DNA from: an uncultured Clostridia bacterium
Lineage (GTDB): Bacteria; Bacillota; Clostridia; Oscillospirales; Ruminococcaceae
DNA: 64,000 bases
Assembly: GCA_947624675.1 (NCBI GenBank)
Contig: CANQLI010000007.1
Location: 3,090-67,089, forward strand
Reading direction: 5' to 3'
Position numbers and translations under genes: made by a program. Shown here in pieces: positions 38,720 through 60,486 of this stretch. Numbering within the stretch: position 1 is the stretch's first letter; each line of letters opens with the position of its first letter. Below the pieces are notes generated by a model that was not told where the DNA came from, ran no database searches, and saw only the letters and a list, made by a program, of their open reading frames with translations.

Positions 38720-40378
38720 TTATGCTGCCGGAGCTTTAACCTTTGAGTTTATAATTCCCACATCCGCAGTAGTTATAATACCGTCATTGTTTGCGTCAGC
38801 AACAGTAAAATCGTAGTCCTCAAGTGTCATTTTTCCCTTTGCGCAGGCATTTATGATACCTACATCTGAGGTCGTTCTTTTTCCGTTAGCGTCTACATCT
38901 CCCAAAATGTGAAGCTCAAAATCAAAGGTTATAGGTTCGTCGGTAACAGTGAAATAATAATCCCTCTCTACACAGTCGTTTGCCGAGACAGTAGCACAGT
39001 ACTCGCCCTCTTCAAGCTCAACCGTCCACAAATCAGTAGCATATAATATACATAGTATCTCATCAGTATCAATTTTGCTAATAGTAATCGAAACCTCAGC
39101 CGCATCAGTACCCGGTATACTTACAGTTCCGCCAACAGTAACATTGTCAGGCTCAGTATATATCGGAGGCTTTGGGGCTGTTTCAGGATCAAACTCGTTG
39201 TCCTTGAACACCTTAGCCATCTTCTCGTCCGTTACCTTTAATTCTCTTCTTATATACCACTCGCTGCAGTCCCAGGACATCGGACAGAGATTATACTCCT
39301 CACAGAACTTGAGAACATAGTCATACCATTCGTAACAGCCCTCTTTCACCTGACCGTTCGGACCGTGAAAAGCTCCGCACTCTCCAATGATAACTCCGTA
39401 TCCGCGTTCGGTATACTGGTTCATCTTCGCAAGCTGATTTTTCATATATTCAATATCCGATTGAGTTCCCCATGTGTCAGAATAACCCCAAGAGTTATTT
39501 GGATCAGATACCAGGCAGTAAGGGGCAGGATCGTAATAGTGAACAGAAATCATAAGGTGGTTTTTCAAAATGTCCTTAGGCATTTCGAAACGCTCATCTA
39601 TAGTTTTATCAATGTTTGTATTATATCCGGCAATCAGCAAGAACCTGTCGGCATTTTTGCTTCCCTGTGAACGGATAATATCTACAAACTTCTGATTTAT
39701 CTCTGTGATAAGTTTATATTTCTGAACTTCTCTCAAGGAGTTCCAATTCGTTCCAAGCTCCTCGTTAGCCGACTCGAAGATCAGCTTATGAGAATAATCC
39801 TTAAAGCGTTCGCCAACCTGTGTCCAGATAGCCTCATATCTTTTCCAAGCCTCATTTTTCAGTGTTTCGTCCTTACTGGAAAAGTCTGTCCACCAGACGT
39901 GGTCGCTGCCGTCATCGTTTTTGCCATCACTTCCTCCGTCCCAGTGCTCATTTACAACAGCGTACATATCAGCTTCAAGGACCCATTTTACTATCTGCTC
40001 AACTCTGTCAAGATAAGCCGGATCTATCGTGTAATCGTCCTTTGACATCATATTAGACCATGCCACCGGAATTCTTACCGAGTCAAAGCCCGCTTCCTTC
40101 ATTCCTTCTATTATTTCCTTTGTTGTTTCAGGCTGTCCCCAGGCTGTCTCATAGCCCTTCGGGGTCTTGTTGGTTATCCAATCCCCACAAGACTCCATAG
40201 TATTGCCGAGATTTATACCGTTTCCCATATCCCATACGACCTCGACCGATGTATCCGGAACATCCGAATCATTTGTGTAAACATCGTCAAGCGCAAAAAC
40301 ATAAGATGAGCTGAAAACCGACATTCCGATAGCAGCCGCTGCAGCAAGACTTAAGACTGATTTTTTTAATGTCTTCAT
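38720..40378 (-). CDS. Glycoside hydrolase family 5 enzyme with a C-terminal Ig-like module and dockerin
   Basis: 552 aa with a signal peptide. GH5 acid/base FESANEE and nucleophile IIGECG. Dockerin repeats DVDANGKRTTSDVGIINACAKG and DANNDGIITTADVGIINSKV. Confidence 0.9.
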   Translation of the reverse strand: MKTLKKSVLSLAAAAAIGMSVFSSSYVFALDDVYTNDSDVPDTSVEVVWDMGNGINLGNTMESCGDWITNKTPKGYETAWGQPETTKEIIEGMKEAGFDSVRIPVAWSNMMSKDDYTIDPAYLDRVEQIVKWVLEADMYAVVNEHWDGGSDGKNDDGSDHVWWTDFSSKDETLKNEAWKRYEAIWTQVGERFKDYSHKLIFESANEELGTNWNSLREVQKYKLITEINQKFVDIIRSQGSKNADRFLLIAGYNTNIDKTIDERFEMPKDILKNHLMISVHYYDPAPYCLVSDPNNSWGYSDTWGTQSDIEYMKNQLAKMNQYTERGYGVIIGECGAFHGPNGQVKEGCYEWYDYVLKFCEEYNLCPMSWDCSEWYIRRELKVTDEKMAKVFKDNEFDPETAPKPPIYTEPDNVTVGGTVSIPGTDAAEVSITISKIDTDEILCILYATDLWTVELEEGEYCATVSANDCVERDYYFTVTDEPITFDFELHILGDVDANGKRTTSDVGIINACAKGKMTLEDYDFTVADANNDGIITTADVGIINSKVKAPAA

Positions 40379-44173: not shown

Positions 44174-44391
44174 TATTCTTAAGAAATTTATACAAGTTAA
44201 ATATTTTGCCTTTGAATTTATAGCTCAAGTTAATATTCTTAAATAATTGACAAATATGCTTTACCATATTCAAATAAGCGAAAAAGAATCAAACAAATGC
44301 TGCAGCGTTTTCTTTTAAAGCGTATATGAGTAAAGCGACCGAAAAGCTTAACTAAGATATAAAAAACCGACCAAACGATCTGTTCAGTCGG

Positions 44392-45111: not shown

Positions 45112-45138
45112 ATATACCTCCCCTGCCGCTGTATTTGC

Positions 45139-45933: not shown

Positions 45934-46660
45934 AACCTCCCTTTACATTAGCCTCAAAGTCAACGATCTCAGCAAATACCGGTATACCGTAAAGTGCTAG
46001 AAGGTCGTCCGAAGGCTTGATCTTGGTATCAACCATCTCAATAACTATGGAAATTATACATCCAAGTACAAGTCCGATTATCAATCCTATAGCCGTATCT
46101 CTCTGAACATTAGGAGAAGACGGCTTGTCCGGTACCGAAGCAGGAACTACCTCTTTTACTATACCTGCATCCACAACCGATGAATAAACACTGTGTGCAT
46201 TTAAATCTATACTCTGTGCAACTGCCGCTGAAAGATCAGGATCAGTCGTTTCAACACTGACAGTCAAAATAGCTGTGTTTTCAGGAGCGGTAACGGTTAT
46301 CCATTCCGATATATCTTCACTTGTATAATTTGTTATTCCGTAATCGTTTTTTAGATCTTCAAGTATATAGTTTATCATCTTTTCACTTGTGAACAAAATC
46401 TGACAGGTGCCCGCAAGTTTTTCAGCCGCCTGAATATCCTGATAACCTATTTCCTGTTGCTGAACTGTGCCAGACACTTCATTAGACTGAACATACAACA
46501 TTATAGAGGATGTGTATTTTTTAGGAACGATCACAGTAAAAATTATCAATGCACCCAACGCGAAAATAACCGTAAGCGCAATGATAAGCTTTATGTGCTT
46601 TATTATCATAAAATACAAGCTCTTAATGTCTATTGTCTTCTCGGTATTGTCCATTAACAT
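45908..46660 (-). CDS. Wzz/CpsC-type chain-length determinant / BY-kinase transmembrane activator
   Basis: 250 aa. Two TM helices flank an extracellular domain of about 150 aa. Overlaps the kinase gene. Confidence 0.85.
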   Translation of the reverse strand: MLMDNTEKTIDIKSLYFMIIKHIKLIIALTVIFALGALIIFTVIVPKKYTSSIMLYVQSNEVSGTVQQQEIGYQDIQAAEKLAGTCQILFTSEKMINYILEDLKNDYGITNYTSEDISEWITVTAPENTAILTVSVETTDPDLSAAVAQSIDLNAHSVYSSVVDAGIVKEVVPASVPDKPSSPNVQRDTAIGLIIGLVLGCIISIVIEMVDTKIKPSDDLLALYGIPVFAEIVDFEANVKGGYDYEYRNV

Positions 46661-46865
46661 TTCTCCTTTTTAGCTACACATATTTTTATTTTATATGTTA
46701 TCTGCTTTCACGAATATTATAATAACATATTTGCTTTTTAATGTCAACATAAATACAGATAAAATTTTTATATATGTAAGATATGCACTATTTTTGTAGT
46801 TTATCGGCGTTTTTTTCGTTTAAATATTTTACTTTACAAAAGTAAGTATATAAATCGTATAAAAA

Positions 46866-47018
46866 GTCAGATTTATAGGTTCAGTACTATAAAAATTTTT
46901 TAATTACCTCTACTAACAGCGCAAAATCAGGAAAAAATGTACACAAACGTACATTCTTCATAAAATAAATACAATATATTTACAAATAATTCATAATATT
47001 CATAATTTGTTCATATTA
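46866..47018 (+). repeat. Dispersed intergenic repeat, copy C
   Basis: Same orientation as copy A. Hairpin at 46931-46959 with one arm mismatch. Lies upstream of wzz. Confidence 0.85.
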
Positions 47019-47208
47019 TCTCCCTGTATACTATTATAATACAGATAGGCAATAACAATGTATTTAACTGCTTTAGCGATACATAAGCTTACAGCCATAA
47101 AGGCTTGCCATATGATAAAGCTGAAATAACTATTAAATAAGGTATATTTGTATTGACATTTACCACTATTTTTCTTTGATAATAAAACCGCCCGAATATT
47201 TCGGACGG

Positions 47209-47451
47209 CTATTTTACTTCCTGATCTAGTACGTAAAAGCATTCATTATTAAAAAAATCAGCCAGCGTTATCTCTAATCCATCGCATATTTTTTTTACTG
47301 TAGAAACAGTTGGTTTGTTATTTTCCCTTGTAAAGATGTTGTTTAGTGTTGACTGTGTGATACCGCATATCGTCGAAAGCTTGTTGATAGTAATGCCTCG
47401 CTCATCACAAAGCTGTTTGATCCTTCTGCGAATTGCGTTCGTCAGCGTCAT
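47209..47451 (-). CDS. XRE-family HTH regulator (80 aa)
   Basis: MTLTNAIRRRIKQLCDERGITINKLSTICGITQSTLNNIF. The ATG at 47451 follows GGAGGATG. The 194-aa ORF-track version runs antisense into the neighbouring gene. Confidence 0.8.
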   Translation of the reverse strand: MTLTNAIRRRIKQLCDERGITINKLSTICGITQSTLNNIFTRENNKPTVSTVKKICDGLEITLADFFNNECFYVLDQEVK

Positions 47452-47509
47452 AAGACATCCTCCAATATAGTTACTATCTATATTGTATGCGATTAACTCT
47501 TTAAAGTTT

Positions 47510-47523
47510 AACTCTCTAGAGTT
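47510..47523. promoter_or_regulatory. Candidate operator overlapping the -35 box of the lipoprotein promoter
   Basis: AACTCT-ct-AGAGTT, plus a direct repeat of TTAACTCT at 47492 and 47508. Confidence 0.4.
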
Positions 47524-47550
47524 GACAAATGTAAAAATTTGTAGTATAAT
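47522..47550 (+). promoter_or_regulatory. Consensus SigA promoter of the lipoprotein gene
   Basis: TTGACA, 17-bp spacer, TATAAT. Confidence 0.65.
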
Positions 47551-47581
47551 AGGACTATATTTTATTAGGAGTGAAACATTT

Positions 47582-48586
47582 ATGAAAAAACAAATCATTT
47601 CGATTCTGACAGCTGCGGTCTGTGCTTCTACTGCGCTGTTAGGCTGCTCAAGCGGCAAAGAAAGCTCTAAGGGTGGTAAAACGGAATCAGTCACTACCAC
47701 CAGCAAAACAACCACAACAACTACAACTGCGACCACGACCACTACAACGACCGCTCCGCCAAAGGTAGAAAAGTATTTTATACCTAAGCACATTGAACAT
47801 ACCGACGCTAAGGGACTATCCTCATCTGTTGATATTACCCTTGATACTACGGGAAATAAGTATATTATTGACTGGAAATATAATGATACACAAACAGGTG
47901 AACAATCCGGACAGGATACAATAGAATATGAGCTAACAGACGGTAAAATTACAAAGGCTAAAGGACCCCAAGGATATGAAACATATACTTACAACGATAA
48001 AGGTTGGTTAATTGAAGCCGACAAAATATCAAACATTGGTGAGGCAGCTAATGTCACACAAAAATATGAATATGATGAAAAAGGAAACATTACTTTCAAC
48101 AGTAGTCATAGCTATTTTTCAGATTCCACTTCCACCTATGAATATAACGAGAACGACAGAATAACTACAGCCAAATATAGCTCTAATTATAATGGTGAAT
48201 CTTATAACCACATTGATAATTATAAATATCCTGATAATAATACATACATTGTAACTACAACTAATGCCGACGGTACGGTAGACGAAACAACATATAAATA
48301 TAATGAACAGTATAAACAATATATTGATATTTCTCGAAGCGATGAATATAAAAATGATAAATACGATCGCTATGATAATTTAATTTTCAGAAAAAATGAT
48401 AATGGCGAAATATCAGCAGAATATCAGGAAGTATCAAAAGAAGATTATTATCGATATAGTATTATTAGCTACTATTCTGCTCAAAGCTGTTCTAGTTTCC
48501 CATATGTGTTTGATACAATATTTTATATTATTTCAGTGTATAGTAGTACTTATAACTACAACAAAGCCGTTAACTACGAATGGTAA
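47582..48586 (+). CDS. Lipoprotein with a poly-Thr linker and YD-like repeats
   Basis: Lipobox LLGCSS, linker TTTSKTTTTTTTATTTTTTTAPP, and repeated units of the form Y.Y[DN]....I. Visibly AT-rich codon usage. The true start is the internal ATG after AGGAG. Confidence 0.7.
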   Translation: MKKQIISILTAAVCASTALLGCSSGKESSKGGKTESVTTTSKTTTTTTTATTTTTTTAPPKVEKYFIPKHIEHTDAKGLSSSVDITLDTTGNKYIIDWKYNDTQTGEQSGQDTIEYELTDGKITKAKGPQGYETYTYNDKGWLIEADKISNIGEAANVTQKYEYDEKGNITFNSSHSYFSDSTSTYEYNENDRITTAKYSSNYNGESYNHIDNYKYPDNNTYIVTTTNADGTVDETTYKYNEQYKQYIDISRSDEYKNDKYDRYDNLIFRKNDNGEISAEYQEVSKEDYYRYSIISYYSAQSCSSFPYVFDTIFYIISVYSSTYNYNKAVNYEW

Positions 48587-48593
48587 ATTCGCC

Positions 48594-48619
48594 AAAGCCG
48601 CAGAGACCTCTGCGGCTTT
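48594..48619 (+). terminator. Terminator after the lipoprotein gene
   Basis: AAAGCCGCAGAG...CTCTGCGGCTTT. Confidence 0.6.
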
Positions 48620-48913
48620 ATTATGTGCAATAAACTAAATCACTTAAGTTCATCTGTAATATCAAACGGAACAAAACCGAGATAGTCAGCGGGTATGAGC
48701 CTGAAATCTATTCCGTTAACAATGCCGTCATAGCATATTTTTTTATAAAATTACAACCTCATCCTATCTTATTGATTATAATGCAACTCACGATGTTAAA
48801 CTACCATATTATCCAGAAGATAAAACAATAACCCCAGAAGTGACAAAAGCCATTTTAAATGGTGGTCCAAAACATTTAACAAAAAGTAAGTATATTGACA
48901 GATAATATGGTGA

Positions 48914-48979
48914 AGCATAAACAATAAGTTGAAGAATTGCTGCGAAAACGACCTTGGCAATTATTTGGCGGTAAGTTGA
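48914..48979 (+). pseudogene. Integrase 3'-end remnant (last 22 codons)
   Basis: SINNKLKNCCENDLGNYLAVS* against the intact integrase C-terminus SINNKLKNCYENDLGNSLAVS*. Weaker HD...H...Y-like decay can be traced back to about 48800. No upstream ORF or start codon. Confidence 0.6.
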
Positions 48980-48983
48980 GCCG

Positions 48984-49004
48984 AGTGGGACTAAAAGTCC
49001 CACT
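48984..49004. repeat. Island palindrome, copy 1
   Basis: aGTGGGACT-AAA-AGTCCCACt. Confidence 0.9.
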
Positions 49005-49050
49005 TCTTTTCTCTGCGTAAAAATTTGTACTAAAATCTTTGAAATATCCC

Positions 49051-49079
49051 TTGACAAGTCGTAAGTATTGTGTTAAAAT
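49051..49079 (+). promoter_or_regulatory. Promoter of tRNA-Ser
   Basis: TTGACA, 17-bp spacer, TAAAAT preceded by TGT (extended -10), about 50 nt upstream of the tRNA. Confidence 0.6.
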
Positions 49080-49128
49080 AGCTAAGGGTCATGTGTCCCG
49101 TAGTTATTGACAATCTTAAGAATATAAT

Positions 49129-49217
<89 letters not shown>

Positions 49218-49271: not shown

Positions 49272-49665
49272 GGATGTTTCTAGATATATCCGGTCAAATA
49301 GCGGTCAACGCAGTTTGACAATAGAATAACAGACTAAAACCGGAGGACTTCTGAGCGTTTCAAAAGCTCTGACTAACAGAACCCATTGGATAACTGTTTG
49401 CTGTATAATTTAATCTTTAATCAACTAAAACCGGCAAGGCAACCGTGATTGAGCGAGTCATCTTTTGAGAACTTACGAGAGTATATACACCCACGAAGGA
49501 CGGCAACCCGTGGACGAGAATACCTGCAAGCAGTCTTGCAAACACAGCGGCCAAAAGAAGTCAACAACTCCCCTGTTACCACAGATGTCACTACAACATT
49601 TAAAGTTGCATACACGCAGGCATAACATAGTTTTGGTCTATAAACAAATACAAGTAATCATAAAT

Positions 49666-49684
49666 GTGGGACTTTTAGTCCCAT
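49666..49684. repeat. Island palindrome, copy 2
   Basis: GTGGGACT-TTT-AGTCCCAT, with one terminal mismatch. Confidence 0.85.
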
Positions 49685-49842: not shown

Positions 49843-50934
49843 ATGATGGACACAAAATCAGTTGAATACTACAAAGATATGTGTATTCAACTTGCATCAG
49901 AAAACTTAAAATTAAGGCAAGAATTAGAAAAACACAAAGGTAAAACACCGATTATTGAATTTTTAGACGATTGGTTAAGTATAATTAAGACTAAGGTAAA
50001 GCCCACAACATTCAGTGGGTATGAAATTCAGATAAAGAAACACTTTAAGCCGTATTTTAAAGGTTATTTTTTAGAGACAACAACAAGTAGTGATATTGAA
50101 AAATACTTTGCATTTAAACTGGAGCAAGGTCTTTCTGCGCAAACTGTTAAGTCTCACCGTTCAACCTTAAGAGCGGCTTTTTCTTATGCGTATAAACACG
50201 ATTTAATTGATGAGAACATTATTAAAAAAACAGATTCCATCAAACCTGACAAATTTGAATATCATATTTTATCATTCAACGAAATATCAAGACTTTTGAT
50301 AATTACCAGAGATATGAATGACTATCCGGCTATTTTACTGTCGGCTCTGTTAGGACTTAGACGCTCAGAAGCTTTGGGGTTAAAGTGGAGCAATATTGAT
50401 TTTAAAAAAAAGATAGCAAGTATAAATTCAACTTGTCTTCGTGTGTATAATTCTAATGAACACACATACGAAACAATTTTGTTGAAGTCAACAAAAAACA
50501 AAACATCTAGCAGACAAATTCCTCTTTCTGAGTTTATGATATTTGAGCTTAAGCGAATCAGAGCATCACAACTAGATAGAGCAAAATCACCGAGATACCA
50601 AAAAGAATATATGGATTATGTTTGCTTAGGAAAAAACGGAGCCCTGTTAAATCCACAGAATGTTTCCCGACATTTCAAAAAGATTCTGGCAGATAACGGA
50701 TTTGACACTAATGTAAGATTTCACGATCTCAGACACTCCTGTGCAACTTATTTGCACAATGAATTGGGCTTTGACATAAAAGATATATCAGTCTATCTCG
50801 GACATTCAAACATCCAAACGACAGGTAATATTTATATGCACGAAAGTGTTAATACAAACATTGCAACAAGCATAAACAATAAGTTGAAGAATTGCTACGA
50901 AAACGACCTTGGCAATTCTTTGGCGGTAAGTTGA
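49843..50934 (+). CDS. int: Tyrosine-type site-specific recombinase/integrase
   Basis: 363 aa. SAM-like N-domain, catalytic residues in GLRRSEALGL, FHDLRHSCATYL and LGHSNIQTTGNIYMH. AAGGAGG RBS. Confidence 0.93.
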   Translation: MMDTKSVEYYKDMCIQLASENLKLRQELEKHKGKTPIIEFLDDWLSIIKTKVKPTTFSGYEIQIKKHFKPYFKGYFLETTTSSDIEKYFAFKLEQGLSAQTVKSHRSTLRAAFSYAYKHDLIDENIIKKTDSIKPDKFEYHILSFNEISRLLIITRDMNDYPAILLSALLGLRRSEALGLKWSNIDFKKKIASINSTCLRVYNSNEHTYETILLKSTKNKTSSRQIPLSEFMIFELKRIRASQLDRAKSPRYQKEYMDYVCLGKNGALLNPQNVSRHFKKILADNGFDTNVRFHDLRHSCATYLHNELGFDIKDISVYLGHSNIQTTGNIYMHESVNTNIATSINNKLKNCYENDLGNSLAVS

Positions 50935-50963
50935 TCCGAGTGGGACTTTTAGTCCCACTCTTT
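50869..50963 (+). repeat. Direct repeat, right copy (about 95 bp)
   Basis: The 3' end of int plus palindrome copy 3. Matches 48914-49008. Confidence 0.85.
50940..50958. repeat. Island palindrome, copy 3
   Basis: GTGGGACT-TTT-AGTCCCAC followed by TCTTTTTTATTTT, then directly the parA RBS. Confidence 0.9.
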
Positions 50964-50985
50964 TTTATTTTAAGGAGGTTTTCAA

Positions 50986-51819
50986 ATGAAAAAAACAAAA
51001 ACAATTGCTGTAGTCAGCGAAAAGGGCGGTGTTGGTAAGACCGCCACACTCTTAAATCTTGCCGGTTCACTCGTAATCAATCAAAGAAAAAAAGTCCTCG
51101 TGGTAGACTTAAATCCACAGCAGGATCTATCAACAAACCTCGGCTATGTACCGCCTACGGTCAAGTCAAAAACAATAAGCGAATACATATACGATCAGTT
51201 GGAAGGTGTGGACTTTCCGATCGTTGCTGAAAGTGACAAAGCCGGATTCATTAAACATACTGATTATGGTCTCGACTATATGCCGGCAAACAGAAACACT
51301 CTTGAGATTTTACCTAGAAACCTTTCGGATTCTGAGGAAGATAATATGTGTATAGCAAATGTGCTTAAAGACAAAATGTTTGCAGACTATGACTATGTGT
51401 TTATTGACTGTAAGGACAGTTTGGTGGCACATCTGGTTCCGCAGGTTTTGATAGCTGCGGATTATGCTATGCCAATAACCGAAGTAGGAATTAACAGCCT
51501 GTTTGATGTTTCTGAGGTTATCAAGAAAATATCTCACAGATACCCGGTGTCAATTATAGGTGTAGTGCTCAACAAGGTGACAGAACAATCGAACATTACC
51601 AAAAATCTTCTGTCAGCCGCAAGAGAGGAATACGGCGAATATCTTTTTAAAACACAGATACCTGACAGAAAAGCACAGATCGAACAGGCAAACGATCTTC
51701 ATCTCCCCTGCGTTATAGCACGGAACAAACACAGAAAGCAAAACACCCTTGCCGGATACTATACAGACTTGGCAACCGAATTTCTTGAAAAGGTAAAGGA
51801 AATGGAGGAGTCAATATGA
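50986..51819 (+). CDS. parA: ParA/Soj-family partition ATPase
   Basis: 277 aa. Deviant Walker A SEKGGVGKT, then VVDLNPQ and IDCKDS. Confidence 0.9.
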   Translation: MKKTKTIAVVSEKGGVGKTATLLNLAGSLVINQRKKVLVVDLNPQQDLSTNLGYVPPTVKSKTISEYIYDQLEGVDFPIVAESDKAGFIKHTDYGLDYMPANRNTLEILPRNLSDSEEDNMCIANVLKDKMFADYDYVFIDCKDSLVAHLVPQVLIAADYAMPITEVGINSLFDVSEVIKKISHRYPVSIIGVVLNKVTEQSNITKNLLSAAREEYGEYLFKTQIPDRKAQIEQANDLHLPCVIARNKHRKQNTLAGYYTDLATEFLEKVKEMEESI

Positions 51820-52751
51820 GTATTATAGAAGCTATGAGAGCAACAAGACAAGCTGAAGATATACAAGATTTTGACTTACCTGCAATAAAGACCAAAACAC
51901 ATAAAGATAAAATTATTGAAATCCCGGTAGGTAATATTTCACCGTACATTGACGAGGATGGAGAAAATCAACCGTTTGATATTGACGGTGAGGATTTAAA
52001 TAGACTTGTGATGTCAATTTCTTCTAACGGTCAGCTAGAACCTATCAAAGTAAAGCAAATATCAGCCGATAAATATATGGTGCTATCTGGTCACAGGCGG
52101 CTTGAAGCCATCAAAAAGCTTAAAAAGCCTACTATAAAAGCTGAGATAGTAAATATACCAACAGAAAAAGAGTTTGAATATGTTTGTAACAGTAATATAT
52201 ACAGGCTGAAAAAATCGCCCTCTTCCCTAGCCAAAATTCTTTTTGGATTTAAAAAGCGAGGAAAGAATGTAACCGACATAGCTGAGATGTTTGGGGTAAA
52301 CAGAAAAACTTGTCATAGGTACCTTAATATAGTAAATTGCATTACTGACCTTCAAGAACTTGGTGATAAAGGCATAATCACAGTTGAAGCTTTTACGGCT
52401 TTACAAAACCTATTGCCTGATGATCAGATCACATTTTCGAGATTTCTTAAAAATACAACTCAGACTGCAAAGCTGACAATAAACCTAAAAAACGCAGATA
52501 TGGTTGAAGATTGTGCATTTACCTGTAGTGAAAAAGGTATTCCGTTTACCGAAGACACCTTATTTGACCTGTTTTTCCCTCAGAAAGTTGATGAGGATAA
52601 CAAAGACGAGGGCGAGGACAAAGACGAAGAGATAAATATAACCATTGAACAACTTATAGCAATTATCCGTGACAAAAACAAAAAGCTATGTGAGATTTCA
52701 GCTATGGATATAATTGAAAAGATTATTGACGCTGCTGAAAGCTTTAAATAG
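51816..52751 (+). CDS. ParB N-terminal-domain protein with an HTH
   Basis: 311 aa. ParB/Srx box LSGHRRLEA, HTH VTDIAEMFGVNRKTCHRYLNIV and an acidic tail. ATGA overlap with parA. Confidence 0.8.
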   Translation: MSIIEAMRATRQAEDIQDFDLPAIKTKTHKDKIIEIPVGNISPYIDEDGENQPFDIDGEDLNRLVMSISSNGQLEPIKVKQISADKYMVLSGHRRLEAIKKLKKPTIKAEIVNIPTEKEFEYVCNSNIYRLKKSPSSLAKILFGFKKRGKNVTDIAEMFGVNRKTCHRYLNIVNCITDLQELGDKGIITVEAFTALQNLLPDDQITFSRFLKNTTQTAKLTINLKNADMVEDCAFTCSEKGIPFTEDTLFDLFFPQKVDEDNKDEGEDKDEEINITIEQLIAIIRDKNKKLCEISAMDIIEKIIDAAESFK

Positions 52752-52759
52752 TATCTTGT

Positions 52760-52778
52760 GTGGGACTTTTAGTCCCAC
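52760..52778. repeat. Island palindrome, copy 4
   Basis: GTGGGACT-TTT-AGTCCCAC, 9 nt after the parB-like stop. Confidence 0.9.
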
Positions 52779-53034: not shown

Positions 53035-53073
53035 TAAAAATATATGATTAAATTTAAAGGAGGTTATAATAGT

Positions 53074-53316
53074 ATGAGTTCGCAATCAACGACAAAAAGA
53101 AAACATAAAAAGTCTTTTTTGTCACTGTCTTCCAAAGATCAGCTTATGGAAATAAGGATATTACATACCGGACTTCTTACTTCCGAAGAAATAAGTAAGA
53201 AACTAGGTATAAGCGTTGATTTAGTAAATGCAATTCTAACAACCCATAATTTAAGACCAAATCGTCAGCTTGAACCCGAAGATGACGGATACAAGGTAAA
53301 TGTCTCTGTTTTGTAA
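53074..53316 (+). CDS. Small basic HTH-like protein (80 aa)
   Basis: The ATG at 53074 follows AAAGGAGG. Basic N-terminus and a putative HTH TSEEISKKLGISVDLVNAIL. Function unknown. Confidence 0.55.
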   Translation: MSSQSTTKRKHKKSFLSLSSKDQLMEIRILHTGLLTSEEISKKLGISVDLVNAILTTHNLRPNRQLEPEDDGYKVNVSVL

Positions 53317-53375: not shown

Positions 53376-53404
53376 TTGCAATTTTTTTCTTATAGTGGTA
53401 TAAT
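53376..53404 (+). promoter_or_regulatory. Promoter of the 1004-aa dockerin protein gene
   Basis: TTGCAA, 17-bp spacer, TATAAT. The 5' UTR of about 150 nt begins with palindrome copy 5. Confidence 0.6.
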
Positions 53405-53415
53405 TTAGGTGGAAA

Positions 53416-53434
53416 GTGAGACTAAAAGTCCCAC
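53416..53434. repeat. Island palindrome, copy 5
   Basis: GTGAGACT-AAA-AGTCCCAC, with one arm mismatch. Confidence 0.85.
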
Positions 53435-53560
53435 TTACATAAAATCGAGCAGCATATATGGTGAAGACTCAGCCGATATGTAAGATGAAAATGGAAGGTT
53501 GTACTAATACGGGAACGCTGCTTCATACACAATATTTTATTACTTGAAGGAGGTTCTATT

Positions 53561-56500
53561 ATGAACAAAAAAACAAAATTTAAAAATCAAATTATTGGCT
53601 TTCTGACTGCAATTACTATGATTGTCGGTCTGGTTGGTGTAATGCCTGTATCTGCTGAAGACACAGCTAAAGAATTTCGTGCTTGGCTGATGTTTTCAAG
53701 CGGAGATTTTTCAATATTCAGATACCGTCCCGATGAGGTTACTGCAAACGGTGATCCAATCAATATTGATACTGTCGATGACGCTACGATTACAGGGGAC
53801 GGAACGTATACGGTAGGATTAAGTCTCAAACAACTTGAAGGTGGGTACGCAAACGGCGCATCGGTTTTTTGTGTAGAGGTTGACGGTCTTGCCGATACAC
53901 TCGGAATAGGTACAAAAGATCTGGGTATTAAAACTTCAGCTGAAAAGATGGCGTTAGCAAGAGCAAAAGGACTTATCGTTAAGGATGTAAAAGCCGATGG
54001 TTCTTTGGTTGATAATAATCAACTCCTTTATGGAGATCTTGAAGGAACCGGGAATCTGAGAATAGAGATTTACAACCAATATGGAGAAACAGGTAAAACA
54101 TATTCGAAATTTAGTGACAGGGAGTATGATGATTACATTTCGGTAACCTTTACCATTGAGGGAATGAACGCCATAATAAATGGTGATAAACCAACTGATC
54201 CAACTGAAGAACCAACCACAGAACCTACAATAGATCCTACCACCGAGGCGACTAAAGAGCCGACTACGGCAAAGCCGGAGCCAACCACAGGACCTACCAC
54301 AGAGGTGACTACCGAGCTAATCACCGAGCCTGTCTTAGAAGGTGTTTCAATCACCGGAACAATAAAAGCTGTCGGCGCTGAAAATTCCCCTGTCGATGTT
54401 GTAGTTGTCCAGAAAGACAACGGCTATATCGCATACGAAGGTAAGGCGGAAAACGGTGAGATATGTGTTCCGAAGATTTCAGACGGAGAGTACACCGTGA
54501 TGATTGGCAAGACATACTTTGCTTCAAAGTCGTATGATGTTACAGTCGGAGCTGAAACAGTAGAGATTAATGATGAGATCAGCCGTTACGGAGATCTGAA
54601 CTCAGACGGCAAGATAACAACTGTTGATGTTGGAATTGTCAATGCCAACGCAAAGGGTGTATCCTCTCTGAATGTGGATGAATACAAGTTTAAACTTGGA
54701 GATGTCAATCTTGATGACAAGATAACGACTGTTGATGTCGGAATGGTCAATGCACACGCAAAGGGTATTAAAAATCTCAGCACTATTGATCCTAACGAAA
54801 TACTTCCGACAGAACCAACGGAAGAACCGACTGATGAACCCACATCAGAGCCTACATCTGATGAAACATCAGAACCAACGGAAGAACCTACTACAGAGCC
54901 GACAACGGCAAAACCGGGTACTGTGCCAACTCAGCGACCGAATGTAGGAATAATCAAACTTGAAAGCGTAAAGAAAAACAACACTACAGCTACTATAGAT
55001 TACGAAAATGCAAAGAACGGCTATGGCGCTAAGATATGGATTGGTGAAGCATACGGCAATGGAAATAATCCCGCAGGTTCCGGTAAAGTTCCTGTTCCGG
55101 TAAAGGTACAAGGATTTGATGTTTTAACTGCCAAAAACGAAAAAATTGACGATACTTCTTTCAGCCTGACCGGGCTAAGACCTAACAAAACATATTATTA
55201 TGTAATCCAGCCATTTGCCAGATATTATGCTGCGTACTGTTCTAATTGTGAAAAAGAACTTGATTATGGAGCAACAGCTTGTCAATATTGTGGTCTAGAC
55301 ATATTTGAAAAGTGTGAATGGAGAGATCACCCAACTGCATGGATCGAAAATGGTGTTACAAAATATTCTGATCTAAGAATTGTAGTATCATGGGGAACTA
55401 GATACTATGATATGTTTACTACAACTGATAACGGTACAATTAAAATCGAAAAGACAATGAAAGAAAAGTATCAAGCTATAACCGATGAAGCATTACCAAA
55501 GCTTAAGCTTTGGAAGAGCAAGTATCCGAAGACAGAATCCGAACTGTTTAAGGAAGTGACGATCGACGGCGAAGAAATACGTTATTACCCGAGTATTCCT
55601 TTTAACTTATCTGATAATAATTCTATCGAAAAGTATATCAATAAATATGAAAACAGAGATTCAATTGCATTTTCAAGCAATGTAGCATCTGGTGGCGTTT
55701 CGTGGAAAGATGAAGAAGCTGCTTTGCTTTCTGTATCAGATTTGCAAGGAATTTATAGTAATCAGCAGTTGGGTGATTGCTTCAATGATGACGGAACATT
55801 AAAAACATATCTTGACGCTTATACTGATCCCATTGCTTACACCGGAGATATAATGGTTAATGGCGGTAGTAGACTTCAGTGTGATTTTGTTGGAGATGTA
55901 GGAGCTATCGGAAAAAAATGGATAAACCAAAATATCACTTCCGATATGACTACTCAGCAAAAGATAGAAAAAATTAACGAGTATACTATTGAGCTAATGA
56001 ATCAACCGGAGAACGACAATTATTACGGTGATAAAGACTTCACACAACTACCGTTTGTTCCAGGCTCATATAGTAGATGGCATCTATATTGTTGGTCAGG
56101 AGGTGGAATCGATGGCGCTGCAGACCTTTGTTCATCTGTTTTCACACACGAGTCATCGATTACTCAAAGTTATAGTTACGATCTGATCTTTAGATCATTA
56201 TGTTACGCCGCAAATATTGACATATATCACTCCGGGGCTGAAACATTCTTTATTATAGAGAACGGCGAGAGGTACTATACTTGTCCATTGTTAAATGCAC
56301 ACTATAAACTGGGATTGTTTGGTGTTAGTGACATAAATCAGTTTACTAATGTTGCCGGAGCAGATATAGATCGTCTCAATGACGCTATTGATCTTTTAAA
56401 TGAACACTACAAGCCCCTATGGGTGGCTAGAGATGGTGAATACTTAAGCGAGAAAGTGTTGTTTAATTCTAATTGGGAAACAATAGCAAAAATTGATATG

Positions 56501-56575
56501 TACGGAATTACCGGATGTGTTGTAGATATAATTGACAGCAATACCGAGTGTGTAGATTGTTATTTGGGCTGTTGA
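53561..56575 (+). CDS. Secreted multidomain protein: unknown N-domain, PT linkers, Ig-like module, dockerin, Fn3-like module, zinc ribbon and a C-terminal domain of about 430 aa
   Basis: 1004 aa with a signal peptide. Dockerin repeats GDLNSDGKITTVDVGIVNANAKG and GDVNLDDKITTVDVGMVNAHAKG. Zinc ribbon CSNCEKELDYGATACQYCG. Pro/Thr/Glu linkers. Confidence 0.85.
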   Translation: MNKKTKFKNQIIGFLTAITMIVGLVGVMPVSAEDTAKEFRAWLMFSSGDFSIFRYRPDEVTANGDPINIDTVDDATITGDGTYTVGLSLKQLEGGYANGASVFCVEVDGLADTLGIGTKDLGIKTSAEKMALARAKGLIVKDVKADGSLVDNNQLLYGDLEGTGNLRIEIYNQYGETGKTYSKFSDREYDDYISVTFTIEGMNAIINGDKPTDPTEEPTTEPTIDPTTEATKEPTTAKPEPTTGPTTEVTTELITEPVLEGVSITGTIKAVGAENSPVDVVVVQKDNGYIAYEGKAENGEICVPKISDGEYTVMIGKTYFASKSYDVTVGAETVEINDEISRYGDLNSDGKITTVDVGIVNANAKGVSSLNVDEYKFKLGDVNLDDKITTVDVGMVNAHAKGIKNLSTIDPNEILPTEPTEEPTDEPTSEPTSDETSEPTEEPTTEPTTAKPGTVPTQRPNVGIIKLESVKKNNTTATIDYENAKNGYGAKIWIGEAYGNGNNPAGSGKVPVPVKVQGFDVLTAKNEKIDDTSFSLTGLRPNKTYYYVIQPFARYYAAYCSNCEKELDYGATACQYCGLDIFEKCEWRDHPTAWIENGVTKYSDLRIVVSWGTRYYDMFTTTDNGTIKIEKTMKEKYQAITDEALPKLKLWKSKYPKTESELFKEVTIDGEEIRYYPSIPFNLSDNNSIEKYINKYENRDSIAFSSNVASGGVSWKDEEAALLSVSDLQGIYSNQQLGDCFNDDGTLKTYLDAYTDPIAYTGDIMVNGGSRLQCDFVGDVGAIGKKWINQNITSDMTTQQKIEKINEYTIELMNQPENDNYYGDKDFTQLPFVPGSYSRWHLYCWSGGGIDGAADLCSSVFTHESSITQSYSYDLIFRSLCYAANIDIYHSGAETFFIIENGERYYTCPLLNAHYKLGLFGVSDINQFTNVAGADIDRLNDAIDLLNEHYKPLWVARDGEYLSEKVLFNSNWETIAKIDMYGITGCVVDIIDSNTECVDCYLGC

Positions 56576-56709: not shown

Positions 56710-56739
56710 TTGACAAAAAATGCAATATTATGTTATAAT
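56710..56739 (+). promoter_or_regulatory. Promoter upstream of the 230-aa membrane/coiled-coil gene
   Basis: TTGACA, 18-bp spacer, TGtTATAAT (extended -10). Confidence 0.6.
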
Positions 56740-56752
56740 AGGAGGTAAAGGA

Positions 56753-57445
56753 ATGGACAAGGATATTAAAATAGCACTTGTAACTGGCGGTGTTGGTGCG
56801 ACTCTGTGTTTTATTACAACAACGATAATCAATGGAGGATTTAACAGTCTTATGGAAGTATTTTTAAACAATATTTTGCCTGCAATTATTGCTGGAGTTA
56901 TAAGTTTAATAAGTGGTTTATTACTTGCAAGACATTCGCAAATAAAGAAAAATACTGCCGCCATTGGGGAATTGTCAAGACAGCTTGGTGACTTTAGTGA
57001 GAGAAGTCTGAGTAATAGGATCGGTAATGCCGACAAGCTTTCGTTGAGCGATCAATACTCTGATATAATGGAATCAATGAAAAATGCAACAGGTGTTGAC
57101 AAGGATAGGCCCTCCTTATCAAAGCAACACGAAAACCTCAGTGAACTCTTAGAAAAAGAGATTGACATAGTTGAAAAAAGATATGATGAAGAAAACAAAA
57201 AAATACAATCCTTTTCTTTTCAAGAAAAAGATATATACGACAAAATTGAGAACTTAAAAACCTTGATGCAATCGTGGTTAGAGTTGACTGAGGACACAAA
57301 ACAAATGCAAATAAAAATTCATAAGCTTGAAGCTGATCTTAAGAATTCACGAACAGAAGTAAACCGATTGAAAGAAGAAAATTCTGTGCTTTATGAACAA
57401 CTTAATCCACATCGGGATAATCAATATCCTACTATTTCTCGATAA
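56753..57445 (+). CDS. Membrane protein with a long cytoplasmic coiled coil (230 aa)
   Basis: The ATG at 56753 lies 7 nt after AGGAGG. Two TM helices, then heptad-rich EKEIDIVEKRYDEENKKIQ...LEADLKNSRTEVNRLKEEN. Confidence 0.6.
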   Translation: MDKDIKIALVTGGVGATLCFITTTIINGGFNSLMEVFLNNILPAIIAGVISLISGLLLARHSQIKKNTAAIGELSRQLGDFSERSLSNRIGNADKLSLSDQYSDIMESMKNATGVDKDRPSLSKQHENLSELLEKEIDIVEKRYDEENKKIQSFSFQEKDIYDKIENLKTLMQSWLELTEDTKQMQIKIHKLEADLKNSRTEVNRLKEENSVLYEQLNPHRDNQYPTISR

Positions 57446-57510: not shown

Positions 57511-57840
57511 ATGCAATCAGATGTGTTTTTAACATTGTTAATGTACATATGTACAATTATAGTTGGTATAATTGTTGCTTTTTTTGTAATGATTATTGGA
57601 ATTTATTTCTTGCTATCTATAATATGTCGACATATACGAAAACAAGAAGAGAATGAAGCCGCATTAAGAGAAACTCATGCAAAATGGACATGGAAAGACA
57701 GTAATCCTGATAATTACGATTGCATTTGCAGTAATTGTGGCGCAGAAGAGGAACATTTATATCCCTATTGTCCTAACTGTGGTGCAAAAATGGATTTAAT
57801 AAATAATTTGGAGTTTAAGAAAGAGGAGATAAATAGTTGA
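57511..57840 (+). CDS. Single-pass membrane protein with a cytoplasmic zinc ribbon (109 aa)
   Basis: Hydrophobic N-terminus, then CSNCGAEEEHLYPYCPNCG. Its stop overlaps the start of the cytosine methyltransferase gene. Confidence 0.6.
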   Translation: MQSDVFLTLLMYICTIIVGIIVAFFVMIIGIYFLLSIICRHIRKQEENEAALRETHAKWTWKDSNPDNYDCICSNCGAEEEHLYPYCPNCGAKMDLINNLEFKKEEINS

Positions 57841-59567
57841 AAGAGTTAATAGTTGACAATTTCGCTGGGGGCGGTGGAGCAAGCACAGGGATTGAGCTTG
57901 CTACAGGCCGCCCGGTAGATATAGCTATAAATCACGATCCGGACGCTATTGCCATGCACAAAGCTAATCACCCGACGTCAAAGCATTACTGCGAGGATGT
58001 TTGGCAGGTGGATCCCGTAGAAGCCTGTGAGGGACATCCGGTAGCACTGGCGTGGTTTTCGCCTGACTGTAAACACTTCTCCCGCGCAAAGGGCGGAAAG
58101 CCGGTGGACAAAAATATCCGTGGGCTTGCATGGGTGGCGATTCGATGGGCATACACGGTGCGCCCTCGGTGCATTATGCTAGAAAACGTGCCAGAGATAC
58201 AGACATGGGGTCCGTTGGGCAAAGATAACAAGCCTATCAAGGAGCGGAGCGGAGAAACATTTACGGGATTTATTCTTGCACTTACAAACGGAATACCGAA
58301 ATATCATCCGGCATTCAACGAGATGTGCAATGCGCTCAATATTTCCCCTTCATCACATATTGCTTACACCCTATCACAGGGATTGGGATACAAAGTCGAG
58401 TACAGGACGCTAAAATCTTGCGATTACGGTGCACCTACCACACGGAAGCGTTTTTATTTAATCGCCCGTTGCGACGGTAAGCCCATTATCTGGCCGGAAC
58501 CGACACACGGACCGAAAGACAGCGCAGCGGTCAAGTCCGGAAAGCTGCTGCCGTACCACACAGCCGCAGAATGTATCGACTGGAGTATCCCGGCGAAAAG
58601 TATTTTTGAACGAGACAAGCCTTTAGCAGAAAAGACGCTTCGCAGGATAGCGAGAGGTATTAAGAAGTTTGTGATTGATAATCCTGAGCCGTTCATTGTG
58701 AACTATAAGTACGAAAATGAACCGGAAAGTATTGAAAAGCCTCTTTCAACAATCACAACTGTCGGGAGTCATTATGTCGTTACACCTACGATTATGTGTA
58801 ACAACGAGAACAATGTCGGTGCAAGTGTGGAATCGCCGGTGCCTACCGTTACGACAGGAAATCGAAACTATCTTGTGGCTCCTACACTTATCCAGTATCA
58901 CGATGAGCAGGGACAGGACGAGGTTCGTGGTCAAGGAATTGACGAGCCAGTCAGAACGGTCGATACATCTAACCGATATGCGTTGTCTTGTGCGCACATT
59001 ATGAAAAATTACGCAGGCGGATATACGGGAGCCGGAAGCTCTGCGGATAAGCCATTAGATACTGTAACGGCGAAAGACCATAACAGCCTTGTCACAGTTC
59101 ATATTATGACGATGCGGAATAACATGGACGGGCAAAAGGCGGACGAACCTCTGACGACCATATCATGCAGCGGAGCGCACCACGCGGAGGTGCAGGCGTT
59201 TCTGGTCAAGTATTTTTCAACCGGCACAGCAAAGCCGGTCGACGAGCCACTGGATACCATAACAACAAAGGATCGATTCGCTGTAATCACTGTGCATGGA
59301 CAGGAATACATAATCACGGACATCCGCATTAGAATGTTACAACCGAGAGAACTGTTCAATGCGCAAGGATTTCCACAAGACTACATCATTGATACAGACG
59401 CTAACGGAAAACCATATCCGAAATCAAAGCAGGTCGCCCGTTGTGGAAACGCCGTCACACCGCCTGTTCCTACCGCACTTGTGAAAGCAAATCTTCCGGA
59501 GCTGTGTGAAAGGAGAACTAAAGAAGTAGAGAGACAGCAAACACCCCTGAGAGCGAACGGAGATTAA
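57837..59567 (+). CDS. DNA (cytosine-5)-methyltransferase, orphan
   Basis: 576 aa. Motif I DNFAGGGGAS, motif IV FSPDCKHFS (catalytic Cys), motif VI IMLENV, then QGFPQDY and CGNAV, with a long variable region. TTG start. Confidence 0.9.
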   Translation: MKELIVDNFAGGGGASTGIELATGRPVDIAINHDPDAIAMHKANHPTSKHYCEDVWQVDPVEACEGHPVALAWFSPDCKHFSRAKGGKPVDKNIRGLAWVAIRWAYTVRPRCIMLENVPEIQTWGPLGKDNKPIKERSGETFTGFILALTNGIPKYHPAFNEMCNALNISPSSHIAYTLSQGLGYKVEYRTLKSCDYGAPTTRKRFYLIARCDGKPIIWPEPTHGPKDSAAVKSGKLLPYHTAAECIDWSIPAKSIFERDKPLAEKTLRRIARGIKKFVIDNPEPFIVNYKYENEPESIEKPLSTITTVGSHYVVTPTIMCNNENNVGASVESPVPTVTTGNRNYLVAPTLIQYHDEQGQDEVRGQGIDEPVRTVDTSNRYALSCAHIMKNYAGGYTGAGSSADKPLDTVTAKDHNSLVTVHIMTMRNNMDGQKADEPLTTISCSGAHHAEVQAFLVKYFSTGTAKPVDEPLDTITTKDRFAVITVHGQEYIITDIRIRMLQPRELFNAQGFPQDYIIDTDANGKPYPKSKQVARCGNAVTPPVPTALVKANLPELCERRTKEVERQQTPLRANGD

Positions 59568-59568
59568 A

Positions 59569-60354
59569 ATGACAATTAAATTATTAAAAGGCGATTGTTT
59601 AGAAATAATGAATGTTATACCTGATAAAAGCATTGATATGATTCTTTGTGATTTACCATATGGCGTTACCGCTAAAAATAAATGGGACACAATTATTCCA
59701 TTTGAAAAGTTGTGGGGATGTTATGATAGGGTCACAAAAGAAAATTGCGCAATAATCTTATTCGGACAAGATAAATTTACAGTTGAATGCATTATGTCAA
59801 ATAAAAAAATACATAGGTATAACTTAATTTGGGACAAAGTATTACCGTCTGGATTTCTAAACGCTAATAGAATGCCACTAAGAGAACATGAGGATATAAT
59901 GGTGTTTTATAAAAAACTACCCACATATAATCCACAAAAAATTAAAGGAGTGCCATGTCATAAAAAAGGAAAGTCTGTTGGCAAAATGAATGACTCAATA
60001 CTTCAAAATAATAATTATGGGAATTCTAGATGTGTCGAAACAAAGGGCGATATGAAATTTCCGACTTCTATATTGAAGTTCCAAAAACCGCATCCAAGTA
60101 AAAGTGTTCATCCTACGCAAAAACCAATTGAATTGCTTGAATACTTGATTAAAACTTATACAAATGAAGGAGATACCGTATTAGACAATTGTATGGGAAG
60201 TGGCAGCACCGGCATTGCCTGTGTGAACACCAACAGAAATTTTATAGGAATAGAGTTAGATAGCAATTATTTTGAGACTGCAAGAAAAAGAATTGAAGAA
60301 TCGGAGAGACAGCAAATGAGGTCAAAACAGGATTCAGCTATTAAGGGCTCATAA
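59569..60354 (+). CDS. Beta-class N6-adenine/N4-cytosine DNA methyltransferase, orphan
   Basis: 261 aa. Motif IV variant CDLPYG precedes motif I DNCMGSGSTGIA (N6_N4_Mtase order). No endonuclease gene is adjacent. Confidence 0.87.
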   Translation: MTIKLLKGDCLEIMNVIPDKSIDMILCDLPYGVTAKNKWDTIIPFEKLWGCYDRVTKENCAIILFGQDKFTVECIMSNKKIHRYNLIWDKVLPSGFLNANRMPLREHEDIMVFYKKLPTYNPQKIKGVPCHKKGKSVGKMNDSILQNNNYGNSRCVETKGDMKFPTSILKFQKPHPSKSVHPTQKPIELLEYLIKTYTNEGDTVLDNCMGSGSTGIACVNTNRNFIGIELDSNYFETARKRIEESERQQMRSKQDSAIKGS

Positions 60355-60373: not shown

Positions 60374-60398
60374 GTGGGACTGGGACTAAAAGTCCCAC
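60374..60398. repeat. Island palindrome, copy 6 (with a partial arm duplication)
   Basis: GTGGGAC-TGGGACT-AAA-AGTCCCAC. Confidence 0.85.
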
Positions 60399-60486
60399 AG
60401 GAAAGGAGTAGGAAGATGTTTAATGATACATCTTAAGAAAATCAAAGTTTAACCTAAAACACAATACTATCGAAAGGAGTTTAAAA

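Follow-up and report, generated by a model that had tools for sequence, protein, structure and literature searches.

In the present study we analysed a window of 64,000 nucleotides (the whole stretch, from contig CANQLI010000007.1 of an uncultured Clostridia bacterium of the Ruminococcaceae) and, within it, an open reading frame (ORF), hereafter the target, which encodes a secreted, dockerin-bearing protein of 1004 amino acids (aa) and lies on a mobile element integrated at a tRNA-Ser gene. All of the evidence is in silico. Since exactly the same protein is present on four independent contigs, one of which is a 132-kb NCBI contig, the target ORF is not an assembly artefact. Downstream of tRNA-Ser(UGA) the tyrosine integrase is followed by ParA and ParB, a small ORF and the target, and these in turn by two small membrane proteins, the C5 and N6/N4 methylases and a giant protein with SpaA domains (Table 1). 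An earlier description made from the letters of the stretch (hereafter the sequence-only reading) had assigned the gene to a mobile element, and this is borne out by the tyrosine integrase, ParA and ParB at tRNA-Ser and by a junction inside the tRNA.

The module map of the target was drawn from its sequence, from Pfam and from the family alignment. A Sec-type signal peptide, with cleavage after VSA32 (between PVSA and ED), precedes an N-terminal module, an Ig-like beta-sandwich and, directly behind the latter, a two-repeat dockerin; the ORF, the secreted nature of its product and both repeats are thereby confirmed as the sequence-only reading had described them. That reading had recognised no glycoside hydrolase domain, and none is found with Pfam or NCBIfam, which likewise detect no carbohydrate-binding or adhesin family; the target has no NCBIfam match at all. 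The N-terminal module, which matches no known family, recurs in the unannotated, secreted proteins P0006, P0007, P0009, P0010 and P0013-P0019, with four copies in P0007, and shows 36% identity to the unannotated human-faecal "Bacteriophage sp." contig MT835960. For the beta-sandwich, PF13620 appears in the Pfam lists of the family members P0004 and P0005 and matches P0011 weakly (E=0.0045, 17.7 bits, below the 32.3-bit cut-off).

Of the remaining modules, the Fn3-like one proposed earlier is indicated by the relatives rather than by the target itself, whose region finds only Pur_ac_phosph_N in Pfam (E=0.022, below threshold), whereas the homologous region of P0003-P0005 carries PF00041 in precomputed Pfam lists and P0023 matches fn3 at 6e-37; P0004 and P0005 carry a second Fn3 where the target has its middle region. 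The C4 zinc ribbon is present as a motif (C560-C563...C575-C578, motif 560-578; Pfam E=0.003, below cut-off) but is not supported as a feature of the family. It forms an insertion of about 40 aa within the Fn3-like module; of the ten family sequences compared (the window protein, P0001-P0005 and P0020-P0023) three possess this insertion, which is, judged from their alignment, lineage-specific. A zinc ribbon is unusual in an exported protein, where it would sit outside the cell; the membrane protein at 37536-38354 and the transmembrane protein shortly downstream of the target (57511-57840) also end in CxxC...CxxC zinc ribbons like this insertion, and the motif is common among the membrane proteins of this genome. 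Finally, what had been taken for a single C-terminal domain of about 430 aa splits into a middle region and a conserved core.

Table 1. Features of the window (aa numbers refer to the target protein; TM, transmembrane)
Feature	Position	Strand	Remarks
GH5 cellulase	38720..40378	-	Pfam Cellulase 6e-44; C-terminal beta-sandwich + dockerin tail approx. 38723-39151
98-bp integrase relic, left of tRNA	48913..49010	.	93% identical to 50868-50964 (integrase 3' end + palindrome); also in L022
tRNA-Ser(UGA), integration target	49129..49217	+	crossover about 49187/49188; 3' ~30 nt supplied by element
Tyrosine integrase	49843..50934	+	Phage_integrase 2.9e-28
ParA	50986..51819	+	Pfam
ParB	51816..52751	+	Pfam
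Small conserved ORF, 90 aa, between parB and target	53044..53316	+	no Pfam match
Promoter-like site TTGCAA-17-TATAAT with TG, upstream of target	53376..53435	+	one copy of the element's palindrome directly after
Palindrome copies	48986-49004, 49665-49683, 50939-50957, 52759-52777, ~53417-53435, 60381-60399
Complete target ORF	53561..56575	+	stop codon included; sequence; purifying selection in core
Signal peptide, aa 1-32	53561..53656	+	read from sequence; first ~18-30 nt are conserved element backbone; backbone homology stops at 53578-53592
N-terminal cassette	53593..54337	+	signal-peptide h-region, N-terminal module aa 33-207 and Pro/Thr linker
Beta-sandwich (Ig-like / CarboxypepD_reg-like), aa 258-341	54332..54583	+	directly before dockerin; GH5-tail homology
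Two-repeat dockerin, aa 342-404 (repeats 344-366, 380-402)	54584..54772	+	Pfam, motif, subtype profile, alignment
Fn3-like module, aa 461-620	54941..55420	+	split by zinc-ribbon-like insertion
CxxC-x12-CxxC zinc-ribbon-like insertion, aa 558-596	55232..55348	+	only in window protein, P0001, P0002
Middle region, aa 621-768	55421..55864	+	common to P0001-P0003, partly to P0022/P0023
Conserved core, aa 769-950	55865..56410	+	family-defining; without match to known families
Pro/Thr linkers of target	aa 208-257 and aa 405-460
Tail of target	aa 951-1004
Coiled-coil small membrane protein	56720..57445	+
TM protein with zinc ribbon	57511..57840	+
Variable accessory region: C5 cytosine methylase and N6/N4 DNA methylase	57837..60354	+	relatives differ here
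Secreted SpaA-domain giant, 1402 aa	60487..64000 (runs off window)	+	completed from L011 (3028-7236)

The dockerin and the chromosomal GH5 cellulase

By its sequence, the target module is a genuine dockerin of a distinct subtype. As a single sequence it scores 19.3 bits against Pfam Dockerin_1 (PF00404), for which the cut-off is 22.9; the assignment follows from three other lines, namely the canonical calcium loops, intact in both repeats (D345, N347, D349 and D356; D381, N383, D385 and D392), the profile of the target's subtype, which matches solved dockerins at E=3e-6 to 1e-3, and the dockerins of P0022 (32.2 bits), P0011 (27.3) and P0012 (31.5), all above the Pfam cut-off, those of P0011 and P0012 being of the same subtype as the target's.

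Among the ORFs of the window only the target and a GH5 cellulase match the dockerin calcium-loop motif, and in both the dockerin is joined to a beta-sandwich. The two pairs are 31% identical over 143 aa (BLASTP, E=1e-19) and the two dockerins alone 46%. Positions 10, 11, 17, 18 and 22 set specificity in the type I dockerins of Clostridium thermocellum; the four repeats of target and GH5 share T10, N17, A/S18, K21 and G/A22, and both target repeats are near-identical at helix positions. The two identities, together with a difference at loop position 11, lead us to conclude that the dockerins are of one subtype and that the target's is not a recent copy of that of the GH5. The match claimed by the sequence-only reading holds in this sense of a shared subtype.

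The GH5 is, from its synteny, a chromosomal core gene: the block ABC-ABC-GH5-tRNA-Arg is kept in a sister species at 81-84% DNA identity, and this species has no element at the syntenic place. The two cellulases are 75% identical over the whole protein, with a much better conserved catalytic domain and a faster-diverging tail. P0012, the closest dockerin outside the family, is a second chromosomal gene with the same dockerin subtype; it is found in a related metagenome-assembled genome (MAG), in a neighbourhood of housekeeping genes. A search with the 157-aa beta-sandwich and dockerin as query returned no homologues and missed even known near-identical proteins, which reflects the limit of a word index for short queries and not biology.

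On these sequence features, docking of the target's dockerin to a cohesin appears plausible. It is improbable, in our judgement, that this dockerin binds no cohesin here and serves instead as a calcium-dependent folding or spacer module, or binds some other partner, with the protein released or held otherwise. Such an explanation would fit the single-sequence Pfam scores below cut-off and the lack of any cohesin in ten large ORFs of the window, in the element's secreted proteins and in the neighbourhood of P0012, but it sits poorly with two intact calcium loops and with repeats near-identical at helix positions; moreover, the same pair has been kept across species on a chromosomal cellulase, the classical setting of cohesin and dockerin.

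The C-terminal core and its exchangeable front ends

Going by the alignment, it is the C-terminal core of about 180 aa that defines the protein family, and the dockerin is one of several interchangeable front ends. The window protein shares its beta-sandwich and dockerin with P0001-P0005 and P0020; in P0022 the dockerin is N-terminal and the beta-sandwich is missing, and P0021 and P0023 have Fn3 arrays and no dockerin. The sequence-only reading, centred on the dockerin, had missed this, as well as the SpaA giants and the SipW/BsaA operon carried by relatives of the element (see below).

Homologues are very few. A word-indexed search yielded five real ones among 5.8 billion clusters, an exhaustive HMMER search with the C-terminal profile gave six matches among 1.84 billion representatives, and one family locus each was found among 185,579 species genomes and among 241 million metagenome records. 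Every locus recovered shows, as far as its contig reaches, the integrase, ParA, ParB, the small ORF, the family protein, variable small genes and at least one SpaA-type giant in this order, and the family gene stands directly after parB wherever upstream DNA is available. To the question, raised by the sequence-only reading, whether homologues always travel with this element family, the answer is that they do, the layout being the same at every recovered locus.

The elements share a backbone of 90-98% identity that extends into the first ~18-30 nt of the target ORF, where homology breaks off abruptly, and the target gene therefore represents a variable slot in a conserved backbone. In two near-identical elements, L001 and L022, the latter in the same host species and at the same site as the window element, the 745-bp N-terminal cassette is replaced by 67 bp. 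As to selection, the ratio of nonsynonymous to synonymous change (pN/pS), measured against the nearest relative, amounts to 0.18 for the core and to 0.10-0.21 for int, parA and parB, which argues that the target gene is functional and under purifying selection; the value of 0.38 for the beta-sandwich/dockerin segment is inflated, as this segment includes a non-homologous junction. Positive selection was rejected, pN/pS being below 1 in all segments. The uneven pS across the segments of the target points to mosaic recombination.

The core carries the motifs G..G..W, EKI..INEY and YY.CP.LN..Y..G.YG..N..TN. Across nine diverse sequences of the family only G, W, N, Y, L and T are invariant (G..G..W, N, Y, Y, LN, G, N..TN), and no Cys, His, Asp, Ser or Glu is. 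Searches of Pfam (per-member scans), NCBIfam and the PDB sequences (hmmsearch) returned only noise for the core. A model of the entire 409-aa C-terminal region had too low a mean per-residue confidence (pLDDT, 49) to be used, and AlphaFold2 on the core alignment reached a predicted TM-score (pTM) of 0.71 and a mean pLDDT of 63, with the conserved segments at 70-96. With this core model Foldseek gave a best match of E=2.2 and probability <= 0.23 against the PDB and nothing significant against BFVD. The non-significant top PDB matches include menin, Streptococcus pyogenes TglA and UCHL1, which are transglutaminase- or papain-like, and the model, in which three strands come after a helix, would be compatible with a core of that kind; our literature search on TglA found nothing relevant.

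These weak resemblances recall the transglutaminase/cysteine-protease C...H pattern on which the sequence-only reading had remarked, and they speak, as far as they go, for an enzyme, that is a transglutaminase-like or papain-like cysteine protease or cross-linker, perhaps acting on fibre proteins. BsaA polymers, to which we return below, carry isopeptide bonds; in the abstract of the same source, these bonds are modelled as forming within the donor-strand-exchange step, and no separate cross-linking enzyme is proposed there (PMC11580942). The pattern itself did not survive comparison. C857 and H890 are present in the target but vary even among close relatives (C, C, Y, Q, A, W, Y and two gaps in the one column; H, N, C, S, S, S, S, G and T in the other), C881 and C908 are absent in P0022 and P0023, and Y or L takes the position at the helix start that a nucleophile would be expected to occupy. 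We rejected the enzyme because the fold matches have E >= 2 and catalytic residues are wanting; the conservation data largely refute it, and we regard it as very improbable. On the model, the core would be at most a degenerate, non-catalytic transglutaminase/papain-like fold.

The island, its integration site and its cargo

In the strain L022, which belongs to the same species, the flank is 98.2% identical to that of the window, and identity continues through the first ~59 nt of the tRNA; the L022 tRNA-Ser (~5557-5650) is truncated there, its 3' ~30 nt being swapped for unrelated sequence, and ARAGORN predicts no tRNA at this place. An intact tRNA-Ser 3' end is present in both the window and L006, whose elements restore the tRNA. 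For these reasons the crossover is placed inside the tRNA. L006, a rabbit-gut Clostridia MAG, carries a 90.6%-identical backbone that adjoins tRNA-Ser behind an unrelated upstream flank. In the window the integrase starts 626 nt after tRNA-Ser, and the 98-bp integrase relic to the left of the tRNA is probably, from its sequence, the remnant of an earlier or tandem element copy at this site. Over the 66.5 kb examined (the window with its extension), and likewise in L006, L009 and L021, no attR repeat came to light. Nor was an empty tRNA-Ser site found, as the left-flank genes led only to short contigs of this one strain, the gene content of the sister species departs from that of the window from 44175 onwards, and L022 carries the element.

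As for the size of the element, L021 lies on a contig of 26.9 kb, of which the part read (24.4 kb) begins 390 nt before the integrase, and three related elements (P0052, P0054 and P0056, L021 being among them) are on contigs of 26.9, 26.3 and 26.3 kb. This suggests an element of about 27 kb, with assemblies either breaking at att/tRNA repeats or assembling the excised form. The Ruminococcus albus 7 megaplasmid, which has the closest annotated ParB (34% identity), was considered as a related element and set aside, that ParB being part of the plasmid's own partition locus.

A perfect 19-nt palindrome, GTGGGACT-TTT-AGTCCCAC, occurs in six copies, all of them intergenic, and nowhere else in the 66.5 kb. 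Its half-sites are kept at the same positions in L001-L006, and also, with a changed centre, in the distant L008 and L009; the copy at 53420 directly follows the promoter-like -10 box upstream of the target. By its sequence and placement it looks like a putative protein-binding site, either parS for the element's ParB or an operator.

The cargo is almost entirely made up of secreted surface proteins. The right end of the window is 100% identical to L011, from which the SpaA-domain giant was completed; it has a signal peptide, an Fn3-like start, SpaA (prealbumin-like) domains only near its C-terminus, about 1000 aa without a family match and no LPXTG motif. In L021 the order is integrase, ParA, ParB, family protein, two SpaA-type giants, a 340-aa protein, an S26 peptidase and small secreted proteins. 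With NCBIfam, the peptidases of L006 and L021 belong to the SipW/archaeal type (TIGR02228; 102.7 and 77.7 bits, cut-off 51.85), and the proteins of 340-345 aa in the same two loci to the BsaA family (TIGR04090; 84.8 and 89.9 bits, cut-off 60); L007 and L010, too, encode an S26 peptidase. At its very end, over 68 nt, the window extension matches the sequence of L006 immediately ahead of the bsaA-like gene, and the window's element thus probably continues, on this sequence match, into a sipW/bsaA module. According to PMC7395162 and PMC11580942, BsaA is a SipW-dependent, TasA-like extracellular polymer of Clostridium perfringens, and its operon also encodes large secreted accessory proteins.

No relaxase, coupling protein or VirB4-type ATPase/type IV secretion system is found in the 24.4 kb read of L021, nor at the other loci, and no virion genes in those 24.4 kb; relatives of the element are absent from IMG/VR (with whole-protein and core alignments as queries), and the C-terminal domain is absent from 50,697 phage records. 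Some accessory genes, YopX and DUF5131, are phage-like. These observations bear on the idea that the target serves the interest of the element itself, by occupying a cohesin or scaffoldin of the host that serves a competing element or phage as receptor, or by promoting cell-cell contact for transfer. The position of the gene directly after the maintenance genes, its universality in the element family and a variable front end that tracks host anchoring systems would agree with such a function, but the lack of transfer machinery in the part of L021 that was read, and a searched literature without any link of scaffoldins to phage or element entry, make it improbable to our minds.

Between the target and the SpaA gene, the accessory regions of otherwise near-identical elements differ: that of L001 (6854-13537) holds YopX, DUF5131, an NS_2 endonuclease, Dam and an N6/N4 methylase, and that of L022 (12475-17574) a C5 methylase, DUF3850, YopX, an AAA protein and DUF5131. 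In the accessory regions of the window, L001 and L022 no nuclease partner is seen for the element's methylases, which may be orphan methylases acting against restriction. The segment 56697-57459 of the window has no blastn match in L001, L002 or L022 and aligns with L005 at 86%.

On the chromosomal side, synteny with the sister species ends at 44175. Beyond this point (44176-49128) the window carries capsule-type regulators (CpsB, a CpsD-like tyrosine kinase, Wzz), an XRE regulator and a lipoprotein with RHS-like repeats, in place of which L022 has a different 194-aa ORF; the equivalent in the sister species consists of a 1069-aa protein, PPIase, BipA and PEPCK. In the sister species (L016, 13730-19461) another mobile element, with an rve-type integrase and Rep_trans, lies between the GH5 and tRNA-Arg (window ~38355-38720; tRNA-Arg 38499-38575), and therefore both tRNA genes flanking this chromosomal segment adjoin a mobile element in at least one lineage. 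Farther away, at 16212-18023, lies the gene of a 603-aa member of the Cthe_2159 family of carbohydrate-binding beta-helix proteins (3.5e-64), which fits a fibre-degrading host; the family was first described in C. thermocellum, and this member has no match to the dockerin calcium-loop motif.

Proposed role and comparison with known systems

Our preferred, if tentative, view is that the target is a Sec-secreted, non-catalytic surface-display protein, a dockerin-tethered binding protein or adaptor, and the constant gene of a compact island integrating at tRNA-Ser. After export, the dockerin would bind in a calcium-dependent manner to a cohesin of the host, carried by a scaffoldin at the cell surface, and so tether the protein; the Pro/Thr linkers and the Fn3-like module would keep the C-terminal domain at a distance from the cell, and this domain would act as a binding module and not as an enzyme. 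The most likely specific role, to which we attach lower confidence, would be that of an adaptor by which the fibre or adhesin cargo of the island itself is joined to the surface of the host, with a logic analogous to that of TapA or BsaC in SipW-dependent fibre systems. For its presenting part, the protein of this host lineage has the pair of beta-sandwich and dockerin that the chromosomal GH5 also uses, and a swappable front end would let the island fit whatever anchoring system a host offers.

Several points weigh against this view. Neither 10 large window ORFs nor the secreted proteins of the element (the latter at E <= 1) yielded a cohesin, and dockerins occur also in genomes without recognisable cohesins. 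Loop position 11 is V in the target and S/A in the GH5. The term "non-catalytic" rests on nine sequences and on a model of moderate confidence (pTM and mean pLDDT as given above). The fibre genes are found 5-10 kb downstream of the target; the target has a promoter-like site of its own, and its link to the fibres is one of co-occurrence only. Furthermore, the window element was followed only to ~66.5 kb, and sipW/bsaA are there inferred from relatives and from the 68-nt match.

The same distance from the fibre operon and the same promoter-like site would be natural if the target were an independent cargo adhesin or substrate-binder, with its dockerin on the host scaffold and its C-terminal (and N-terminal) module binding plant fibre, mucus or other cells, and with no link to the fibre genes. 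The N-terminal module, recurring in other secreted proteins and sometimes in tandem, also suits such a protein, and the gene is the most divergent part of a conserved backbone, as expected for a ligand-facing surface protein. Nevertheless, the strictly identical slot across very divergent elements, all of which have SpaA-type proteins, is hard to reconcile with independence, and Pfam and NCBIfam detect no carbohydrate-binding or adhesin family; we hold this explanation to be possible, though rather unlikely.

The view of a dockerin-tethered display protein may also be carried further. The island as a whole could be a transferable surface kit of SpaA-type giants and SipW/BsaA fibres, whose universal gene is an adaptor with a core that grips the island's fibre or adhesin and a front end that is cassette-swapped to the anchoring of the host, here a cohesin-dockerin scaffold. 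In this extended form the proposal is, we believe, unlikely, yet worth stating. In a bolder variant still, the ~1000 unannotated residues of the giant protein would hide a divergent cohesin, and the island would bring its own cohesin-dockerin pair.

Cohesin-dockerin systems are normally studied as chromosomal machines that assemble carbohydrate-active enzymes. In the present case the single gene never lost from the island family carries a dockerin of the host's subtype, and it lies beside genes for matrix fibres and giant surface proteins. If docking is true, mobile elements can plug foreign surface structures into a cellulosome-type scaffold by means of an anchoring module exchangeable between hosts, which would bear on the gain of adhesion and biofilm traits in fibre-degrading gut bacteria, on the sharing of scaffoldins between enzymes and other cargo, and on the engineering of modular display. 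If the island is indeed a transferable kit, the dockerin would be a module of host range and adaptation, and structures acquired horizontally, without a part in cellulolysis, would hijack cellulosome scaffolds for their display. The analysis further defines a very rare protein domain that had not been described before, as well as a new family of compact islands with a conserved intergenic palindrome. The novelty lies in a mobile island whose constant gene encodes a dockerin protein, in the core domain, in the exchange of front ends and in the association with SipW/BsaA; nothing in the literature searched links dockerins to integrative elements, prophages or SipW/TasA systems in this way.

Among known systems, the type I dockerins of cellulosomal or amylosomal proteins (for example C. 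thermocellum Cel9/CelD/Xyn10B and Ruminococcus bromii Amy16), to which the solved dockerins matched by the subtype profile belong, resemble the target's in having two segments of ~22 residues, each with a calcium loop (D/N at 1, 3, 5 and 12) and a helix. The target's differs from them in its subtype signature T-T-x-D-V-G-x-x-N-x-x-x-K-G, in sitting internally and not at the C-terminus, and in being part of a non-catalytic, island-borne protein. Non-enzymatic dockerin-bearing proteins are known in ruminococci.

X-module-dockerin (XDoc) pairs, such as the XDocII of C. thermocellum CipA and the XDoc of Ruminococcus flavefaciens ScaB/CttA, which binds ScaE, anchor scaffoldins to the cell surface. 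The beta-sandwich immediately upstream of the dockerin, conserved together with it in target and GH5, recalls the make-up of such pairs; the pair is found here also on an ordinary enzyme, the GH5, and not on scaffoldins only. With the transglutaminase-/papain-like fold, the modelled core has a helix and a three-stranded sheet in common and differs in lacking a conserved Cys-His-Asp.

Bacillus subtilis TapA and C. perfringens BsaC (PMC7395162, PMC11580942, PMC10151520) recall the target as large secreted non-subunit proteins encoded on a unit with SipW and TasA/BsaA proteins. The target is without sequence similarity to them, is predicted to be tethered by a dockerin, and has its gene outside the sipW operon, 5-10 kb upstream and behind parB. 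Lastly, with other tRNA-integrating islands that possess a tyrosine integrase and ParAB, the present one shares an integrase next to tRNA-Ser, a crossover in the 3' part of the tRNA and varying methylases, and it stands apart from them in a cargo of almost exclusively secreted surface proteins and in the intergenic palindrome conserved along its backbone.

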